From the NCBI GenBank assembly GCA_963706285.1, contig CAVPLU010000010.1, positions 64,001-128,000 of the forward strand: a DNA stretch of 64,000 bases, read 5' to 3'. This DNA is from Candidatus Bathyarchaeota archaeon. Its GTDB lineage: Archaea > Thermoproteota > Bathyarchaeia > 40CM-2-53-6. Positions 49,584 through 57,474 of the stretch are shown here, in pieces. The notes under the pieces are model-generated. The model worked only from the letters and a program-made list of their open reading frames with translations, was not told the DNA's origin and searched no databases. A program made the position numbers and the translations under genes. Numbering within the stretch: position 1 is the stretch's first letter; every line of letters begins with the position of its first letter.

Positions 49584-50996
49584 CTACCGCGACGATCCCT
49601 CACTGAAGTGTGTCACGGTGTCGGCGAGGCTCGATAGGAAGCTGCCTACTTCCTCAACGGTATTGAAGTGCGTAGGGCTGGCACGAACCGCGATGGATCT
49701 GCCGTATGTCTTGAGGGTCCTCGAATAGAAGCCTCCGCCGTCTTCCGCCAGAACAGCAACCGCATGCTTGTTCCAAAGGTATTCAGCCACCGCGAAAGGA
49801 TCCGCATCATTGATGTTGAAGGTAAACGTGGGAACTCGCAAGTCCACTTCAGTTGGATCACTCACTCCATAGAGCTCCATTCCCTTAATCGATCGTACGC
49901 CCTCAACCTGCCCTCGCCCAGTCAGCATGCATTTCGAAAGCGTTCGTTCATAGTTCTCAATCCAAGACATGGCGGCCTTGAGAAGCCGTGCTCTTCCATC
50001 GTATCCGGAAAGCTCATCGCTGACTTCCGTCTCTACCTGGTTGCCCAACCAGCTGAGATAATCCATTACAGCCGTAATGGAAGCGAAGAGCGCCTGGTCG
50101 CGCGTACCAAGTTCCCACTTCTCAGGCCCATGGTCGGGCGCGGGAACCACCTTGTAGGGTTTCAGAGTTTCCAGTAATTCTTCCCGACCAAACATGAAAC
50201 TTCCGCGTCGAGCGAACAACTTGTAAGCTGAAAATACAGCGAAATCGAAATCCAACTGCTGCACATCGATCGGAACATGAGCTACCGTGTGCACTGCATC
50301 GAGAATAGTGTAGGCACCCGCCCTCTTCCCAATCTCAAGTACTTGCTTCAGCGGGGTTTTCGAGCCTAGTACATTCGAGACTCCTGTAACAGTGACGATC
50401 CGTGTCTTCTCATCGACCAGGCGCTCGAAATGGGATAGATCCAGTAGCCCGTTTTCGGGATTGAATTTTGCGAATCTGACCTCTTTGACAACACCTCTAC
50501 GTTGAAGCTCCAACCAGGGGCTGACGTTGGCATAGTGCTCATACTCAGTAGTCACAATGTTCTCGTCTCCAGACATCTCCCTTCCAAGGGCATAACTGAG
50601 ATGAAACAGCAAGCTTGTAGCGGACTCACCGGACACGATGCAATTCTCTGAAGGCGCGTTTAGGAAATCCCTAACAGATTTCCTACCTTCGCGAATAACC
50701 TCTTCGTTCCTCTTTGACTCCCATGATGGACCACCTGTATTCGCTGAGCAGTCCAAACGAGCTCTCGCCTCGGCGTCTGCCACTCGTTGCAGAACCAGTG
50801 ATCCCGCTGCATTTTCGAAGAAGATCCTCCGCCTTCCACTCGCGTCGGCTCCAGCGCGAGGGAACTCTTTCCTGATTGCGGAAAGAAGTTCACTGACGGC
50901 ACTATCTTGCAGGGGTGAGTTGTTGCTTTTCACGGTCGATTGCCTACCCACAGATCCATCGTAACCTCTAGAAATCTTTGACGATGACGTAGTCAT
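49584..50996 (-). CDS. Cysteine desulfurase-like class V PLP enzyme
   Basis: FFENAAGS, EHYANV.PW, SNVLGS, DAVH, FSAYK, ELGT, RVPTF, HFNT.EEV. Confidence 0.82.
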   Translation of the reverse strand: MTTSSSKISRGYDGSVGRQSTVKSNNSPLQDSAVSELLSAIRKEFPRAGADASGRRRIFFENAAGSLVLQRVADAEARARLDCSANTGGPSWESKRNEEVIREGRKSVRDFLNAPSENCIVSGESATSLLFHLSYALGREMSGDENIVTTEYEHYANVSPWLELQRRGVVKEVRFAKFNPENGLLDLSHFERLVDEKTRIVTVTGVSNVLGSKTPLKQVLEIGKRAGAYTILDAVHTVAHVPIDVQQLDFDFAVFSAYKLFARRGSFMFGREELLETLKPYKVVPAPDHGPEKWELGTRDQALFASITAVMDYLSWLGNQVETEVSDELSGYDGRARLLKAAMSWIENYERTLSKCMLTGRGQVEGVRSIKGMELYGVSDPTEVDLRVPTFTFNINDADPFAVAEYLWNKHAVAVLAEDGGGFYSRTLKTYGRSIAVRASPTHFNTVEEVGSFLSSLADTVTHFSEGSSR

Positions 50997-51147: not shown

Positions 51148-52755
51148 TTAGCTCAGAATGTTCTCAATTGCGTCCATTTCGCAATCTTCTGGCAGGGGTA
51201 TTCCAGTTGCCTTAGCGGCTCTTTCGGTCAATGAGATCAGGTCGTTCCTATGCAGGAATTTGAGATTCCATTTTCTGGATCCTGCCATAAGCTGCTGGAG
51301 TCCGACTCCAATGCGGCCTTTCATGTAACCGTAGAGTCCAATGGCCTCTAAAGGTAGCTTGTCAAAGCGATTTCCTAGCAAAGACTGTAGCTCGCTTGTG
51401 GAAGCAAGAAAGGTCTTTGGAGACATTCCGTAGCGTTCAACGAATGCCTTGGGTAGCTGGCCGTTCTCTGCGAGTCGGGCGAAGTGCGCTGTCTTGGTCA
51501 CGGCGGTAATGGGAGACCTTCCTAGTAGGGCTGCCTTCACGTAGGGCCCCTTGCCGAAATTACTCATTGCGATTGACTTGTAGATTTGCGTCTCTTCGAT
51601 GAAGCCGCCAGCAATTACAATGTCGGGCACGTACTTGCTCTTCTTTCTTAGGATCTCGGCGCATTTCAAGACTTGAGCTTCGAGGTATACTGTGGGGGTC
51701 CCCATTTCGTCCATCATTGGAACAGGGCTCATGCCGGTTCCTCCGCCAGCTCCGTCGAATGTTACATAGTTGAGTTTTGCCTCTGAAGCCAGTTTCATTG
51801 TGAGAGCAACAGCGCTCGGTCTGTAAGCGCCAGTCTTCAGACTCACGCGCTTGACGCCTTGGCTTCTGAGACTATCTATGTCTTCAAGGAAACCCTTCTC
51901 ACTAAGCATGCCAACTCTGCTATGTCTCTCAAAAGACTGAATCATGCCATCTTTGAAAGCTTCCTTGACCCCGGGCTGTTCAGGGTCCGGGATGACTAAA
52001 TATCCCGCTTCCTTCAGTCGGAGTGCTCTCTGATGATCTGTAATTCGGACTTCTCCACCAATCGCCTTGGCTCCCTGTCCCCATTTTCTCTCGATTGTGT
52101 CTACCTCTAGCTTCGAAGCTGCGTAGGTATCCACTCCAAGTCTCTGGTCTTCGACGTTTGTTTGAACTGCAATGTCCCCGTGCTTTCCATCCCAGAACTC
52201 TCTGAATAAGTCGACCCTGCGTTTGAGCTCTTGGGAGTAAGTTATCTTGCCATGCTCCATCTTTGACTGCGGGTCCATCGCGCAGACGTTCTCGCCTACT
52301 GTTATGGTGATTCCCGAAATGGCTGCGCCAATGGCAAGACCTTCCCAGTAGGTTCTTGCTATGTCGGTTGAACCGTATGCCCCGATCAAGAGCGGCATCT
52401 TCAGAGGGACGCCGCCAACGTTGCTCTCGATGTTGACGTTCGGGAATAGTGCCAGATCCGAGTCGCTTTCTATACCCTCAGCTCCAAGAAGCTCCGAATG
52501 GATGTTGAAGTGCGACCAGTCCAGCCGGAAATCTTTGAGCGCTCCAGCCGTGCTATGCCCAAATTTCATGGGATCCGGATATAGCGCTTCTCTTCCTCTG
52601 AGTGCAGCCAAACCAATTTCGCACAAGATTGGACAATCATCAGTGCAGATTGGACACATGCCGCTTGTACAGCTTCTATCCTGGACTCTCGTCAAGGTTC
52701 CAGTCGTAGATTTTCCGTTCAGATAGGAAGAGTTCCTTGCAACTTCACCGTTCAT
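51148..52755 (-). CDS. Stand-alone FMN-binding glutamate synthase family protein
   Basis: N-terminal C..C...C...CE, GENV, KWGQGAK.IGGE, LKTGAY, DGAGGGTGMSP, AGG. Confidence 0.85.
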   Translation of the reverse strand: MNGEVARNSSYLNGKSTTGTLTRVQDRSCTSGMCPICTDDCPILCEIGLAALRGREALYPDPMKFGHSTAGALKDFRLDWSHFNIHSELLGAEGIESDSDLALFPNVNIESNVGGVPLKMPLLIGAYGSTDIARTYWEGLAIGAAISGITITVGENVCAMDPQSKMEHGKITYSQELKRRVDLFREFWDGKHGDIAVQTNVEDQRLGVDTYAASKLEVDTIERKWGQGAKAIGGEVRITDHQRALRLKEAGYLVIPDPEQPGVKEAFKDGMIQSFERHSRVGMLSEKGFLEDIDSLRSQGVKRVSLKTGAYRPSAVALTMKLASEAKLNYVTFDGAGGGTGMSPVPMMDEMGTPTVYLEAQVLKCAEILRKKSKYVPDIVIAGGFIEETQIYKSIAMSNFGKGPYVKAALLGRSPITAVTKTAHFARLAENGQLPKAFVERYGMSPKTFLASTSELQSLLGNRFDKLPLEAIGLYGYMKGRIGVGLQQLMAGSRKWNLKFLHRNDLISLTERAAKATGIPLPEDCEMDAIENILS

Positions 52756-52800
52756 GGAGTATCCTCTCTACTTATCAAATGCCAAGAAACGCGGAAGCCC

Positions 52801-52917
52801 TCAGGTTTCCAGCTTCAGAATGTCGTAGAATTCGCAGCATCTCTCGCTGATGTGGAGATGGTGCCGCAAGTCGTCCGGTTTGCCGAAGATGGCTCTGCAG
52901 ACTCTGCATTGTGGCAT
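52801..52917 (-). CDS. 38-aa C2H2/C2HC-type zinc-finger microprotein (not in ORF track)
   Basis: MPQCRVCRAIFGKPDDLRHHLHISERCCEFYDILKLET; lies between the conserved promoter motif and the GOGAT-like gene. Confidence 0.65.
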   Translation of the reverse strand: MPQCRVCRAIFGKPDDLRHHLHISERCCEFYDILKLET

Positions 52918-52952
52918 TTCTTTTCAGGGCTCGCAGTACGCCTTTCAGCCAG

Positions 52953-52974
52953 TATTAAGACGGGTGTGCACTTT
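52953..52974 (-). promoter_or_regulatory. Conserved 22-bp promoter/operator motif, copy 1 (AAAGTGCACACCCGTCTTAATA)
   Basis: 21/22 identical to 56255-56276; ends in a TATA-like CTTAATA 35 nt before the ATG. Confidence 0.75.
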
Positions 52975-53106
52975 CGTCCTTGCTCTTATGTCAATTATGC
53001 CGCATTGGACCGGAAAACTTGTAAATCTGGCTAGATGTGGAGTCGTCGAATGTCCGATTTGCTGGAAGGCTCTGTAGGATGTGAGGTTAATTGCTGATCG
53101 GTGCGG

Positions 53107-54468
53107 CTACAATTTCTTGATGTATCTCTGCACTTCCCAAGGGGTAACCTGTGTCCTGTACAAGTCCCATTCGCGATGTTTCTCTTCAAGGAAGTTCTCA
53201 TACAGGGTCTCACCAAGCGCCTCCCTAACGAGTTGACTTTTCTCGATCTCCTCCAACGCTTCGGAAAGAGATTCGGGTAGTGAAACTATGCCGCGTTCTT
53301 TGCGTTCCTCATACGTCAACTTGTAGACGTTCAATTCAGTAGGTTTAGGCGGTTCGATTTTCTTCTGTATGCCGTCGAGGCCGCTCAGGCAAAGCACTGC
53401 GAACTGGAGGTACGGGTTGCCCGCAGGATCAGGACATCTGATCTCACAGCGTGCGGCACTCTTTCTCTTGCCGAAGTTGGGCACGCGGATGAGTGGAGAT
53501 CTGTTTCTAAGCGCCCACGCAACGTAGACAGGCGCCTCAAAGCCTGGGACTAGTCGTTTGTATGAGTTTGGCCAAGAGGCGAGGATTCCGCACATTTCTC
53601 GCCCGTGAGCTAGTTGGCCGCCGATGAAGTTCAACGCTGTTTTGGACAGGTATCCCGTGCTTTCATTATCCTCAAAGAATACGTTCTTTGATCCGTCAGC
53701 GCTCCACAGGCTCTGGTGAACATGCATGCCTGATCCGTTCACACCAGGGAAAGGCTTGGGCATGTACGTGGCGAGGTAGCCGTTTCTCGCTGCAACAGCC
53801 TTGGTAACCATCTTCATAGTGGCGGTGCGGTCAGCAGTCACGAGGGCCTCACCATACTTGAAGTCTATCTCATTCTGACCAAGCGCAACCTCGTGGTGAG
53901 CAACTTCAATCTCGATTCCAAATGCTTCTGCAGTGTCCGCGATCTCTCTTCGGAGATCTTCCGTGAGGTCTCCCGGGTGCAGGTCAAAGTAGCCGCCCAT
54001 ATCGATCGGTGTAGGTGCGAGGCTGTCCTGTTCCTTCACGAGGAAGAACTCCAGTTCTGGTGCACAGTTGAATGTGAACCCTGCTTGGCTGCATTTCTGT
54101 AAGGCTCTTTCAAGCGCGAAACGAGGATCCGCCTCGAACCGTTCGTTATTGGGCGTGTAGATGTCGCAGATTAGCCGGCATGACGCCTTTTCTTCGGGAC
54201 GCCACGGAATAATCGAAAAAGTGCTTGGGTCCGGATAGGCTACAAGGTCGGATTCCTCAATTGGTCTGTATCCAGTGACGGATGAGCCGTCGAATGACTG
54301 GCCGTTCTCGAAGATCGATTCTATTTCTTTCGTTCGCACAGAGTAGCTCTTCAATATGCCATCTATGTCTATGAACTGGAGTCGAGCGAACCTAATTTCC
54401 CTGTCACGTATTATCTTGGAGACTTTGGCTACGTCTTCACGCCACTTCGAATCCTTGAAGTTCTTCAT
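53107..54468 (-). CDS. glnA: Glutamine synthetase type I
   Basis: FDGSSV.G, PELEFF, HHEVA.GQ.E, MPKP..G.NGSGMHVH, YKRLVPGFEAP, NRS.LIR, EIRCPDP. Confidence 0.96.
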   Translation of the reverse strand: MKNFKDSKWREDVAKVSKIIRDREIRFARLQFIDIDGILKSYSVRTKEIESIFENGQSFDGSSVTGYRPIEESDLVAYPDPSTFSIIPWRPEEKASCRLICDIYTPNNERFEADPRFALERALQKCSQAGFTFNCAPELEFFLVKEQDSLAPTPIDMGGYFDLHPGDLTEDLRREIADTAEAFGIEIEVAHHEVALGQNEIDFKYGEALVTADRTATMKMVTKAVAARNGYLATYMPKPFPGVNGSGMHVHQSLWSADGSKNVFFEDNESTGYLSKTALNFIGGQLAHGREMCGILASWPNSYKRLVPGFEAPVYVAWALRNRSPLIRVPNFGKRKSAARCEIRCPDPAGNPYLQFAVLCLSGLDGIQKKIEPPKPTELNVYKLTYEERKERGIVSLPESLSEALEEIEKSQLVREALGETLYENFLEEKHREWDLYRTQVTPWEVQRYIKKL

Positions 54469-54973
54469 TGAAAGCCGTCCTCAGTTGAATCCTGATATGC
54501 AGAGACTCTGTCCCAGCGCTACTTAACACATATCTACACATATGCGACCCATCCCATGTCAGCATTGCTGCTAGAGATCAACCGGACGCACATTGCGGCC
54601 ACGACGGGACTGAACAACGCACCGATGTGCTGGACGCGCGACAATGGTTTCTGTGATGGGACTTGTAGAACATGGAATGCAGAAATCTTTGGGGACTGTT
54701 TATCGAATCGTTCCGAAAATGCCTACACAGTTCCGAGGCATAGACGAAGTTCAATCGTTTTGAGGGTCCTCGGAATTTTGAATAATCTCTAGGGGAACGT
54801 TGAATCTACTTGTGTTCAAGAAATTGATGGAAATCTCTTCTGTGCAGTCTTCATACATCGCTGGTTATTCAACGGAACCTGACAAAGCTGCAAGTTCTGG
54901 CACCTAGATCTGATTGCATGAGAATCAAATCTGAATTGTCTGCCTGAGTTCATTATCGTTCACATGGTACACG

Positions 54974-56203
54974 TCATGCATAGGCTTCTTCGCCGTGTTG
55001 ACTGATATCGAGACCATCGTGTTCTTCTTGTGGACTGACTCTCACAGGAGTGAAGATGTCGATCGCTCTGAGAATTACGTATGACCCGACAAAGCCGAAT
55101 ACTGCGACGACGGCTACGCCAAGCGCCTGAATAAGCACCAGGTTAGGATTTCCAAATAGTAACCCATTGGGTCCAGTTGGGTTGACGAGGGTGGATGCAA
55201 ACAGACCTGTGGCTATTGTTCCCCATATGCCACCCATGCCGTGGCACGCAAAGACGTCTAGTGCGTCGTCCAATGTGGTTCTAGCTCTCCAACTCGCCAC
55301 ATAGTTGCACAGCAATCCGGCTACCAGTCCGATGATTATTGCAGGCATTGTGCCTACGTAGCCTGAAGCAGGCGTTATCGCTACGAGGCCACACACGGCG
55401 CCGATCGATATGCCTACTGCTGATGGCTTGCCTTTCCTAATCCAATCTACTATCATCCAACTTACAGCTGCCGCAGCTGCAGCAAGATTCGTGACAACCA
55501 AAGCGTTCACTGCCAAAACATTGGCTGCAAGTGCGCTTCCGGCGTTGAATCCAAACCAGCCAAACCATAGGATAGATGCTCCAAGAATCACGAAGGGGAT
55601 GTTGTTAGGGCTGATGCCATTCTCTTTCCAAGCTAGGCCTTTTCTTCTGCCGATTACGAGTGCGCCTGCGAGCGCAGAGACGGCGGCAGCGGTGTGGACC
55701 ACTAATCCTCCTGCGAAGTCAATTACGCCAATGGTCCTTAGCCATCCGCCAATGGCCCAGTTCCAGTGTGCTATTGGGGCGTAGATGAAGGTCGTCCAGA
55801 GAACTATGTAGATGAGCAGTGCTTTGAAGCGAATTCTCTCAGCAAAAGCTCCGATAATTAGCGCTGGTGTTATAGCTGCAAATTTTAGCTGAAATGCAAA
55901 ATAGAGAAGTTCTGGAATAGTATCTGAATAGTTGGGGTTCGGTGTCAATCCAACATTGTTCAGTCCAAGATCCGAAAGATCTCCAATAATGCCATTCATT
56001 GTCGGTCCGAGTGCGAGACTGTACCCCCACAAGGCCCAAATCAAACTAATGACAGCGAAGATCGCGAGACATTGAACTATGGTCGATATGAGGTTCTTGC
56101 GTCTGACCAAACCACCATAGAAGAATCCGAGTGCCGGAGTCATTATCATGACAAGACTAGTTGCTGCGATAACCCATGCCATGTCCCCAGAGTCCAACAA
56201 CAC
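54974..56203 (-). CDS. amtB: Ammonium transporter
   Basis: GFFYGGL, FQ.KFAAIT, DFAGGLVVH, WFGWFGFNAGS, DDALDVF..HG, GLD..HGE.AY. Confidence 0.96.
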   Translation of the reverse strand: MLLDSGDMAWVIAATSLVMIMTPALGFFYGGLVRRKNLISTIVQCLAIFAVISLIWALWGYSLALGPTMNGIIGDLSDLGLNNVGLTPNPNYSDTIPELLYFAFQLKFAAITPALIIGAFAERIRFKALLIYIVLWTTFIYAPIAHWNWAIGGWLRTIGVIDFAGGLVVHTAAAVSALAGALVIGRRKGLAWKENGISPNNIPFVILGASILWFGWFGFNAGSALAANVLAVNALVVTNLAAAAAAVSWMIVDWIRKGKPSAVGISIGAVCGLVAITPASGYVGTMPAIIIGLVAGLLCNYVASWRARTTLDDALDVFACHGMGGIWGTIATGLFASTLVNPTGPNGLLFGNPNLVLIQALGVAVVAVFGFVGSYVILRAIDIFTPVRVSPQEEHDGLDISQHGEEAYA

Positions 56204-56254
56204 ACTTCCCTCTCCTGAACTTGACCTAGAATTTTCAGGGGGCTCTTCTCTCGA

Positions 56255-56276
56255 TATTAAGACAGGTGTGCACTTT
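56255..56276 (-). promoter_or_regulatory. Conserved 22-bp promoter/operator motif, copy 2 (AAAGTGCACACCTGTCTTAATA)
   Basis: Lies between amtB and the divergent regulator; 21/22 identical to 52953-52974. Confidence 0.75.
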
Positions 56277-56352
56277 TCCGAGTGGTTCTGTATCGGCTTT
56301 GTCAGGTTGAGACTGGAAATACCTAAATGTCTCGCAGTCAGAAGGAGTTTCT

Positions 56353-57474
56353 ATGGCCGATTTGCTAGATGATCGGACCAATCTCTTGCTACTTCAGGAA
56401 ATCTGTGCCGGGAATGGCCTAGAAGTGAACCTGACGCAGTTGTCGAAACGCCTGAAGAGGCACAGAAACACGATCAGAGAGAGAGTCAGGAGCTTACTTT
56501 CTCACAAGGTAATTGACCGGCCAGTTGTTCCGTTTCTGGGGTTATTCAGAGAACGTCCCTTGCTGGTTGTGGTCTACGCTGACCTTCCTGAAGACGCCAG
56601 AGTTTCCAAGTGGATCAAGGAAGACATGAACATTTTCGGCGCCTATAGAGTCAGAGAAGGCGACTACAACATGATGCTCTTCGAATTTCACAGTGATGTC
56701 TGGAGTTATCATGTTTGGAGAGATTCTCTTGTCCCTGATGGTAAGATACCTGCAAGACGAGGAAGAACCGCATCTAACACTCTGTACCTTTCAAACAGAC
56801 TCGTAACGAAATATCAGCCCAACACTGCGATTCAGCTCATTGAAGAACAGTTTGCGAAACCACGCCGTGTAACCATCAATGATTACGTACTGGACGAACT
56901 TGCGCTGGACGTGATGAGGTGTCTTCTAGAGGGGAAGGGAATCAAGGTGAACGAGAATTTTCTCTCCAAGAAGATCGGTGTTCACAGATCCACTATCAGG
57001 AGGAGGATCTTGAAAATGGAGGAAGAGGGGATCATCCATCCTCCTCTTTGCCGATTCCCCCTTTTCTTCACGCCATCAAACTTCCTCCTGGTCTTCTCGA
57101 TGCTTGAAGTAAAGGAGCCTCGAAAGTTCATGAATGACGTGACAAACGATCCACATGTTAGCCTGGCCTACAACATAAGCGAAGGCAGATACAATATGCT
57201 CCTCTTCGAATCGCACGTGGACATGGAGAGCTATCTGCGGTGGGAAAGCAGCTACGAGACCAAGTACCCGGAATGTTTCGGCTCGATTAAGAACAACTAT
57301 CTTTCGCCGAGGATGACTATTTCGATCGACCAACAGAAAGTGTCGCTTGGCATAATTGCTGAGAAATTGAAAGCGCTAGGAGCTAAGTCGACTCACGCTC
57401 GCAAGAGAGATGATACGTCTCGAGTCTCAAGAGGCTCCTCAAGACCGCCTTTGCCATCGTCTGCCTTCCGATAA
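56353..57474 (+). CDS. Tandem Lrp/AsnC-like transcription regulator (two wHTH + ligand-binding units)
   Basis: Two aligned halves: LSKRLKRHRNTIRERV..EGDYNMMLFEFH and LSKKIGVHRSTIRRRI..EGRYNMLLFESH. Confidence 0.78.
   Translation: MADLLDDRTNLLLLQEICAGNGLEVNLTQLSKRLKRHRNTIRERVRSLLSHKVIDRPVVPFLGLFRERPLLVVVYADLPEDARVSKWIKEDMNIFGAYRVREGDYNMMLFEFHSDVWSYHVWRDSLVPDGKIPARRGRTASNTLYLSNRLVTKYQPNTAIQLIEEQFAKPRRVTINDYVLDELALDVMRCLLEGKGIKVNENFLSKKIGVHRSTIRRRILKMEEEGIIHPPLCRFPLFFTPSNFLLVFSMLEVKEPRKFMNDVTNDPHVSLAYNISEGRYNMLLFESHVDMESYLRWESSYETKYPECFGSIKNNYLSPRMTISIDQQKVSLGIIAEKLKALGAKSTHARKRDDTSRVSRGSSRPPLPSSAFR

Follow-up and report, generated by a model that had tools for sequence, protein, structure and literature searches.

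Knowledge of nitrogen control in archaea comes mostly from NrpR and PII of methanogens and partly from the Lrp proteins of Sulfolobus and the haloarchaea. How nitrogen assimilation might be coordinated in the Bathyarchaeia, an abundant uncultured group of sediments and wetlands, is a question raised by a stretch of 64,000 nucleotides from a Candidatus Bathyarchaeota archaeon (positions 64001-128000 of contig C10 of the genome under study, G000; hereafter the window). Here a 22-bp sequence, AAAGTGCACACCYGTCTTAATA, precedes both the ammonium transporter gene amtB and a unit in which a small zinc-finger (Zn-finger)-like open reading frame (ORF) is followed by a gene related to glutamate synthase (GOGAT). 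An initial annotation of the window took this motif as the mark of a candidate nitrogen regulon with activator-dependent promoters, probably read by the double-Lrp protein encoded beside amtB; our literature searches, in which supplements were not covered, found no paper on nitrogen regulation in Bathyarchaeia. With moderate confidence, we propose that the genome possesses a small nitrogen regulon that arose through copying of a cassette comprising the start of the regulator gene and its operator, and that this operator is read by the tandem-Lrp protein; the binding, the ligand and the sign of the control are what we infer.

Both copies of the motif lie on the minus strand, at 52953-52974 in the promoter of the Zn-finger/GOGAT-related unit (AAAGTGCACACCCGTCTTAATA) and at 56255-56276 in the amtB promoter (AAAGTGCACACCTGTCTTAATA), where the initial annotation had placed them, and they agree at 21 of 22 positions, with the shared form AAAGTGCACACC(C/T)GTCTTAATA. 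The sequence occurs at these two sites and nowhere else in the window or in the whole 2.13-Mb genome, and scans allowing up to three mismatches recovered only the same two copies, both in the window (0 expected from 100 shuffles) and in the entire 2,134,064 bases (0 in the reversed control). Across four distinct amtB promoters (G000, two G030 contigs and metagenome contig L051), every column of positions 1-10 and 14-22 is invariant (19/19) and every column of positions 11-13 is variable (0/3 invariant), against a background of 104/148 invariant columns in the rest of the amtB intergenic region (P ~0.0012). G030 and metagenome contig L047 have the Zn-finger box unchanged.

The amtB box can be read as a specific half, AAAGTGCACA, a variable spacer, CCT, and a generic TATA core, GTCTTAATA. 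We derived a promoter consensus from 1,382 upstream regions of long ORFs, which were used in place of tRNA genes because Aragorn's intron-rich tRNA predictions looked unreliable. The hexamers enriched upstream of ORFs are TTAATA (8.9-fold), TTATAT, CTTATA, TCTTAA and GTCTTA, and in 56 upstream sites with TTA(A/T)AT G is favoured at -3 and C at -1, with no purine-rich TFB-recognition element (BRE). GTCTTAATA fits the resulting generic core, G-N-C-TTA(A/T)AT, and the TATA-like element, which stands 35-72 nt before the start codons of the window's three units, matches the organism's own upstream consensus. Judged by this fit, the 3' half of the motif is the ordinary TATA core of the organism, and its specific part, as delimited by alignment, is AAAGTG-YA-N4-YG. 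Since the lack of a purine-rich BRE is found in the generic profile of the genome as well, it is not a mark of these promoters, and the argument for activator dependence that had been built upon it is weak. The GTGCAC palindrome, also put forward as a feature of the motif, falls outside the consensus, with the gltB, glnA and G069 boxes (introduced below) reading GTGTAG or GTGTAA, and by this comparison it is incidental. 

Downstream of both strong copies there is indeed a second box of the form GAGCCC(CC)TGAAAA, as annotated: GAGCCCTGAAAA at 52921-52932 (minus strand), 20 nt past TTAATA and 3 nt before the Zn-finger ATG, and GAGCCCCCTGAAAA at 56232-56245 (minus strand), 9 nt past TTAATA and at about the expected transcript start of amtB. 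GAGCC-N0-3-CTGAAAA has three matches in the genome and none in the control. With gaps of 20 and 9 nt from TTAATA, however, the second box is out of register with the core promoter, and close relatives keep only CTGAA(A/G)(A/G) of it. A scan of metagenomes for AAAGTGCACANNNGTCTTAATA yielded seven loci, two of them (L047 and L051) of the same lineage. The other five matches (within L048-L053) represent one unrelated locus in five samples, without a homologue of the window's genes, and we took them as chance; all 19 fixed bases match at this locus, the three free positions read CGT, CAT or TGC among its copies, and a few other sites differ as well.

To a third nitrogen gene of the window, glnA, the initial annotation had assigned a weaker version of the motif at 54523-54539. 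This version is present within a box at 54520-54542 (minus strand, TATGTGTAGATATGTGTTAAGTA), which, read as GTGTAGATATGTGTTAAG, agrees at 16/22 positions with the gltB box described below and, over GTGTAGATATGT-N-TTAAG, with the regulator-side box of the congeneric genome G031. In genome G069 (locus L011), the regulator gene directly adjoins the Zn-finger/GOGAT-related unit, the promoter of which reads AAAGTGTAAGCATGCTTTAAGTA. From the amtB, Zn-finger, glnA and L011 sites we drew a relaxed pattern, GTG[CT]A-N4-[CT]G-N2-TTAA, which has four matches in G000, all of them intergenic and facing a gene: those of amtB, glnA and the Zn-finger unit, and one on another contig, C12:13582-13598. The reversed-sequence control gave seven matches against these four, and it is therefore the placement of the matches, not their number, that is informative. 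The sole new site lies upstream of gltB, which encodes a protein of 1490-1513 amino acids (aa) that has the full set of four GltB domains (GATase_2, Glu_syn_central, Glu_synthase and GXGXG). A position weight matrix (PWM) built from five sites, those of the relaxed pattern including G069, scores the four sites of the genome at 25.3-31.4 bits, with glnA at the lower end (25.3); the next best site in the genome reaches 17.1 bits and the best in the reversed genome 18.6. The box is restricted to four nitrogen-assimilation promoters, unique to them in the genome, selectively conserved and bipartite. Scanning the genome for further nitrogen genes thus recovered a bona fide gltB and no site at any other kind of gene, and the proposal of a nitrogen regulon holds to this extent, but for four promoters in one lineage and not as a broad regulon.

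The gltB promoter (G000:C12:13320-13720; positions 5800-6220 of L069) has two AAAGTG boxes 13 nt apart, AAAGTGCGCACT, which holds the 10-bp palindrome AGTGCGCACT, and then AAAGTGTAGACA. The leader up to the gltB start codon is unusually long, ~180-250 nt, with a 47-aa ORF inside it. Promoters of gltB and of the GOGAT-related gene are too rare among genomes of the family for deeper footprinting.

The gene beside amtB (56353-57474, plus strand) encodes a protein of 373 aa, single-copy in G000, for which the predicted fold agrees with the earlier description of a double Lrp. Its halves are 31% identical (E 4e-20), and an AlphaFold2 model based on 47 homologues (pLDDT 90.6) has two units, each with a winged helix-turn-helix (HTH) and a RAM-like beta-alpha-beta-beta-alpha-beta domain. 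In a Foldseek search with this predicted model, each half matched many Lrp/AsnC regulators over ~145 columns with probability 1.0 and template-modelling (TM) scores of 0.58-0.68 on the target, including NMB0573, PH0140, FL11/PH1519 (with the DNA complex 2e1c), the glutamine-binding ST1022, E. coli Lrp, AsnC and LrpA. The second unit passes the Pfam cut-offs for HTH_11 (31.0 vs 25) and HTH_24 (22.8 vs 21.9); the first, which matches HTH families below the cut-off only, is a homologue of the second and has the same three-helix domain in the model. Conserved H/R/T/R residues occur in both predicted HTH helices. The RAM family PF01037 was not matched at E up to 10, where Pfam yields HTH families only, NCBIfam gave only sub-threshold LysM/ChrS matches, and a profile search of the PDB returned weak Lrp matches (E 0.008-0.02). 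On this model, the regulator is a single-chain tandem Lrp/AsnC-type protein.

A survey of the order found the regulator in 35/105 genomes, and the 5' end of the gene with its upstream DNA was fetched from 30 loci. Wherever the regulator is at least 75% identical to that of G000, the 260 nt upstream have their highest-scoring PWM hit exactly at offset 76, on the opposite strand (7/7 genomes). The four loci outside the PWM training set (G031, G063, G052 and G044) also peak at offset 76 in 4/4 cases, their spacers having been checked by hand, and one locus with a 66%-identical regulator peaks there too, weakly (7.3 bits). The gene across the box varies between genomes, being amtB, the Zn-finger ORF, a RAM-only AsnC protein or a Zn-ribbon protein. 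These comparisons support a link between box and regulator that would be stronger than mere adjacency, with 76 nt to the start codon in seven genomes.

The same distance recurs within G000. The 13-mer GCAAATCGGNCAT occurs exactly three times in the genome, once at the regulator start codon and once each upstream of the Zn-finger and gltB boxes. At amtB it is read on the minus strand as GCAAATCGGCCAT (56353-56365), which is complementary to the opening codons of the regulator gene, start codon included (MADLL), and lies 76 nt from the box. At the Zn-finger unit, a relic regulator start, GCAAATCGGACAT, which would read MSDLLEGSVGCEVNC*, lies at 53050-53062 (minus strand), 75 nt from the box; the gltB copy is spaced by 76 nt; and at glnA a degenerate relic, GCACATCGGTGCG, at 54618-54630 (minus strand) keeps 9/13 positions at 75 nt (P ~0.005 at spacer 74-78). 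The glnA and Zn-finger modules are identical at 54/117 positions without gaps. Reading frames behind the relic ATGs decay within 15-44 codons, and a tblastn search for a longer regulator pseudogene behind them, at E up to 100, gave a best match of only E 0.5. In L047 the 13-mer is intact and the codons behind it have diverged, a pattern that suggests constraint on the DNA, not on the peptide.

The two strong 22-mers form direct repeats that flank glnA-amtB, and in both G069 and G031 the regulator gene stands directly beside the Zn-finger ORF. From the repeats and this gene order together, it is likely that an insertion placed amtB, perhaps with glnA, between the regulator gene and the Zn-finger unit, and that the cassette was copied in the process.

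The mechanism that we propose starts from a box in which a specific 5' element (AAA-N-TG-YA-N4-YG) is fused to the genome's ordinary TATA core, 75-76 nt from the tandem-Lrp start codon and pointing away from the regulator gene. A cassette running from the regulator start through the 76-nt spacer to box and TATA would have been copied before four units (amtB, the Zn-finger/GOGAT-related unit, gltB and glnA); the amtB copy has the intact regulator gene beside it and the other three retain only a relic of its start, that of glnA being the most decayed. The tandem-Lrp protein may bind the box at its 5' half, and perhaps the distal 13-mer as well, and could make transcription of the four units respond to nitrogen status by way of a small-molecule ligand bound in the RAM-like domains, the likeliest candidate being glutamine or another amino acid. 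The element lies just upstream of the variable, non-conserved BRE position, and for this reason we lean, by a hair, toward activation through help in the recruitment of TBP/TFB over repression. A wider proposal, which we put forward tentatively and think somewhat improbable as a whole, is that ammonium assimilation, in Bathyarchaeia as in neighbouring lineages, has this uncharacterised tandem-Lrp family as its master regulator in place of NrpR/PII. The cassette would then have been copied before genes that relatives mostly lack (amtB, fused gltB), and surplus regulator copies would have decayed until only 13 nt were left, which would still act as a distal operator.

Four other explanations have to be weighed against this proposal. 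Nearly as plausible as not is a system with the same box and regulator acting in the opposite sense, in which the protein is a repressor that sits on the BRE/TATA-proximal box, maybe bridging to the 13-mer, and keeps TFB/TBP out for as long as no ligand releases it. The conserved box borders on the BRE/TATA region and overlaps it in part, a second conserved block 76 nt off would suit wrapping or looping, and most characterised archaeal regulators with sites overlapping BRE/TATA, such as NrpR and LrpA, repress. On the other hand, only the 3 nt at the BRE position are variable (0/3 invariant), which fits a promoter with a poor BRE in need of help, and in the passages compared both Halobacterium Lrp and Sa-Lrp are reported to raise glnA expression (PMC2894021, PMC3584215). 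It is unlikely, in our estimate, that the box is real and shared but has another reader (a different transcription factor, a TFB paralogue or the small zinc-finger protein), the 76 nt then reflecting no more than a compact bidirectional promoter. Distant orthologues of the regulator with near-identical recognition helices lack the AAAGTG box, and part of the box is generic core promoter, both of which such a reader would explain; yet the distance to the regulator start is exactly 76 nt in 7/7 genomes while the gene on the far side changes, and copies without a regulator gene still keep the 13-mer of the regulator start.

Copying alone, in which a promoter segment was duplicated when amtB-glnA was inserted and no common regulation exists, would account for the direct repeats flanking glnA-amtB, for the regulator gene standing next to the Zn-finger unit in G069 and G031, and for the relic regulator starts. 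We consider it improbable, for the copies are unalignable between their conserved blocks (9-nt vs 20-nt spacers, ~50% overall identity) whereas the box is 21/22 identical and invariant in relatives, and all four copies, one of them on another contig, stand at nitrogen-assimilation genes. Least probable, and very unlikely, is that the 373-aa protein is an enzyme with a tandem Lrp-like fold, like the siroheme decarboxylases NirDL and AhbAB. AhbA and AhbB are, in the part of the source consulted, enzymes annotated as Lrp/AsnC regulators (PMC3942049), and the best whole-chain Foldseek match of the regulator is NirDL 4ch7 (E 3e-9, TM 0.47/0.55). This match, however, has only 10% identity and a root-mean-square deviation of 12.8 Å, Pfam at E up to 10 gives only DNA-binding HTH families, basic residues are conserved in both HTH helices, and no haem genes adjoin the regulator in the window; its neighbours, with other genomes included, are nitrogen genes (amtB, GOGAT and glutamate dehydrogenase, GDH) and A-type ATPase genes.

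Several observations weigh against the regulon that we favour, as does the NirDL match just described. The four copies in G000 share ancestry by duplication, and their likeness is accordingly not independent evidence of function. In the glnA promoters of G030 and G035, AAGGCTTATACTCTGA is present, the box is absent and the promoter is unrelated; the expectation that orthologous promoters carry the motif is therefore borne out at amtB (19/19 columns) and beside the regulator (76 nt, 7/7) but not at these glnA genes. At none of the 22 loci with a regulator of 48-63% identity is the top PWM hit at offset 76 (best 10.3), and these distant loci instead carry a ATGATATATA-type block at about that position. 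This family-wide comparison is the main weakness of the proposal, since the box differs between members and the recognition helices almost not at all. Either the true operator is another feature that all these loci share, or specificity has drifted. The five other genomes that bear the box have it only beside the regulator, which implies that a multi-promoter regulon is confined to the G000 lineage, and none of the six further matches with one mismatch (control 5) lies at a nitrogen gene, five of them being inside ORFs.

The sixth of these matches, TGTCAGTATGCCTTCA at L113 (G063:C7), lies upstream of an ordinary Lrp/AsnC-like ORF; its TATA half is broken, and we regard it as probably chance. 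An order-wide scan with AAAGTGYA-N4-YG-N2-TTAA gave nine matches in 5/105 genomes (control 6); those in G091 and G098 are not at nitrogen genes and were set aside as chance, and the others occur only in G000, G030 and G069. At the distant loci L015, L016, L018, L019 and L022, the intergenic region between the regulator and a Fer4/GOGAT gene has two blocks, one like ATATATATCATGATTAT and one like TTATG-N-CAGAAATGATA. The ATATATATCATGATTAT-like block stands about where the box sits in the G000 lineage, and TGTAA-N-CATG is common to it and the G069 box. The only 6-mers shared between the modules of the G000 lineage and the distant regulator loci are of the CATAAT/AATTAT type, too weak for a family-wide operator.

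Comparison with known systems sets the proposed regulon among Lrp-type controls and apart from NrpR. The NrpR operator is GGAA-N6-TTCC. This sequence is found in 0/4 of the promoter regions, also with gaps of N5-7, and, in agreement with the initial annotation that this is no NrpR system, the NrpR domain (PF01995; the control search found it in two methanogens) and PII (PF00543) have no match in G000, absences that are provisional, as a further reservation about the proposal, given 89% completeness and 7.5% contamination. NrpR of methanogens resembles the present system in that it is dedicated to nitrogen genes (glnA, amtB and those of the nif type) and controls their transcription through promoter operators, but belongs to another protein family.

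A close precedent, as far as the passages compared describe it, is Sa-Lrp of Sulfolobus acidocaldarius, a glutamine-responsive protein that binds the control regions of gltB, gdhA and glnA (PMC3584215). Like the G000 regulator it is Lrp-type, comes from the Thermoproteota lineage, outside the NrpR-bearing euryarchaea, and addresses the same gene set; unlike it, the protein is there described as a single HTH and RAM chain that oligomerises and has degenerate AT-rich sites and pleiotropic targets, whereas in G000 a single chain has two diverged units, and the box is sharp, GC-containing, fused to a TATA core, fixed 76 nt from the regulator start and found at only four sites in the genome. In Halobacterium salinarum, the source passages report that Lrp induces the adjacent glnA, which goes up when Lrp is overproduced (PMC2894021), and an Lrp-type gene lies beside the glutamine synthetase gene in haloarchaea including Haloferax mediterranei (PMC2894021, PMC8229911). 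The haloarchaeal arrangement is thus alike in placing an Lrp-type gene next to a glutamine synthetase gene, but the protein is single-unit, no shared operator is defined in the passages compared, and the usual divergent partners of the bathyarchaeal gene are amtB, GOGAT genes or GDH, not glnA. From these two precedents, Lrp-type control of glutamine synthetase and GOGAT is known already, and the G000 system would be a variant of it. E. coli Lrp is also reported to have direct positive control of glutamate synthase, gltBDF (PMC1784095); the setting differs in being a bacterial sigma-70 promoter with multiple upstream sites under a global regulator. NirDL and AhbAB share the tandem (fused or heterodimeric) Lrp-like architecture but are enzymes of haem d1 and haem synthesis, with poor superposition and an unrelated genomic context, and in contrast to them the predicted HTH helices of the G000 protein keep residues of the DNA-binding type.

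If the proposal is right, it provides a candidate nitrogen control for a lineage of Bathyarchaeia that is testable in vitro without culture. It supplies an expressible 373-aa protein, four DNA targets, each with a sharply delimited specific element of 10 nt, and a spacing rule of 76 nt that is kept from genome to genome. The locus may also illustrate how regulons grow, through the copying of a regulator-plus-operator cassette to newly acquired genes, with relic start codons left as fossils. With its two units fused, the Lrp would be a natural "single-chain dimer" of an unusual kind, and its two diverged HTHs could read an asymmetric site.

The neighbourhoods of the regulator in other genomes often contain nitrogen genes. 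Among 12 regulator contigs from the species collection, amtB or GOGAT-type genes adjoin the regulator in 6/12. At 29 loci of the order the upstream DNA was usable, and the nearest gene on the box side is amtB in two, the Zn-finger ORF of the GOGAT-related unit in two, a Fer4 gene resembling the head of a Fer4-PyrRedox-GATase2-GluSynthase (archaeal GOGAT) operon in four, a Glu/Leu/Phe/Val dehydrogenase in two and PhoU_div in three, the rest being small unknown ORFs or undetermined; since the ORF picking was crude, each count is a minimum. The dehydrogenase gene is divergent from the regulator in L108 (G068) and L109 (G080), and in family f2 (L103, L104 and L107 = G059, G061 and G060) the divergent partner is a PhoU_div/DUF47 gene. 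On one contig, CAZAXO010000012.1 (L019/L022), two paralogous tandem-Lrp genes flank a single archaeal GOGAT operon, each with a divergent Fer4 gene.

In the window, the nitrogen genes lie on the minus strand, and the A-type ATPase D, B and A genes follow the regulator gene. The ammonium transporter gene amtB (54974-56182; PF00909, E 4e-122) likely starts at the ATG at 56182, as an upstream GTG at 56203 reads GTC in relatives; no glnK is seen behind it. Within the genus it was found in 2/10 genomes, with one more match, a weak one (E 1e-4, with stops), in G035. Between amtB and glnA, the spacer of 505 nt (54469-54973) holds the decayed cassette copy and a 78-aa ORF (54556-54792), which has no Pfam or NCBIfam family. 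The gene glnA (53107-54468) encodes a type I glutamine synthetase (PF00120 and PF03951; TIGR00653 at 513 bits, above the cut-off).

The first gene of the GOGAT-related unit is a 38-aa Cys/His zinc-finger-like ORF (52801-52917), identified by ORF reading, which matches no Pfam or NCBIfam family and is kept in G030 and L047 (89%) and in G069 (61%), and is also read in G031. In the window, L011, L055 and L082 its residues C4, C7, H20 and C27/C28 are conserved, which suggests a C2HC-type zinc knuckle, and it precedes the GOGAT-related gene wherever the contig lets it be seen. That gene (51148-52755) encodes a 535-aa 'glutamate synthase-related protein' with only the FMN-binding GOGAT domain (PF01645, E 1.5e-7); it has 7998 homologues, many ~70% identical, labelled glutamate synthase-related or FMN-binding, and a PDB sequence search found no solved structure related to it. 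A class-V aminotransferase gene (49584-50996; PF00266, E 4e-47) follows after a gap of 151 nt, in the same order in G030, and is a candidate member of the operon. Among the 59 genomes of the family, three have the GOGAT-related gene and one the fused gltB. In G035 (L056, G035:C200), the GOGAT-related gene has neither the Zn-finger ORF nor the AAAGTG box, CTGTCTTAAATA is retained, and the gene stands directly behind a putative glutamate dehydrogenase gene, identified by eye from its translation.

An Rfam search of 52000-57000, at E up to 1, found no family. The public runs at the locus are available as assembled contigs, which show neither transcript starts nor strand, and their coverage of the promoters is patchy; contigs from an RNA library of one run, X20, contain amtB-like and glnA-like sequence at 90-95% likeness, which is not proof that the G000 genes are expressed. 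The G000 assembly comprises 21 contigs with 51% G+C. Identical upstream contexts occur on different contigs of G000 (C6/C7, C3/C5 and C10/C11/C15), as with TAAGACGTGCACTCCATGGCTTATAT at C10:1760, C11:1753 and C15:30610, which points to repeated elements or redundant contigs, in agreement with the contamination estimate.

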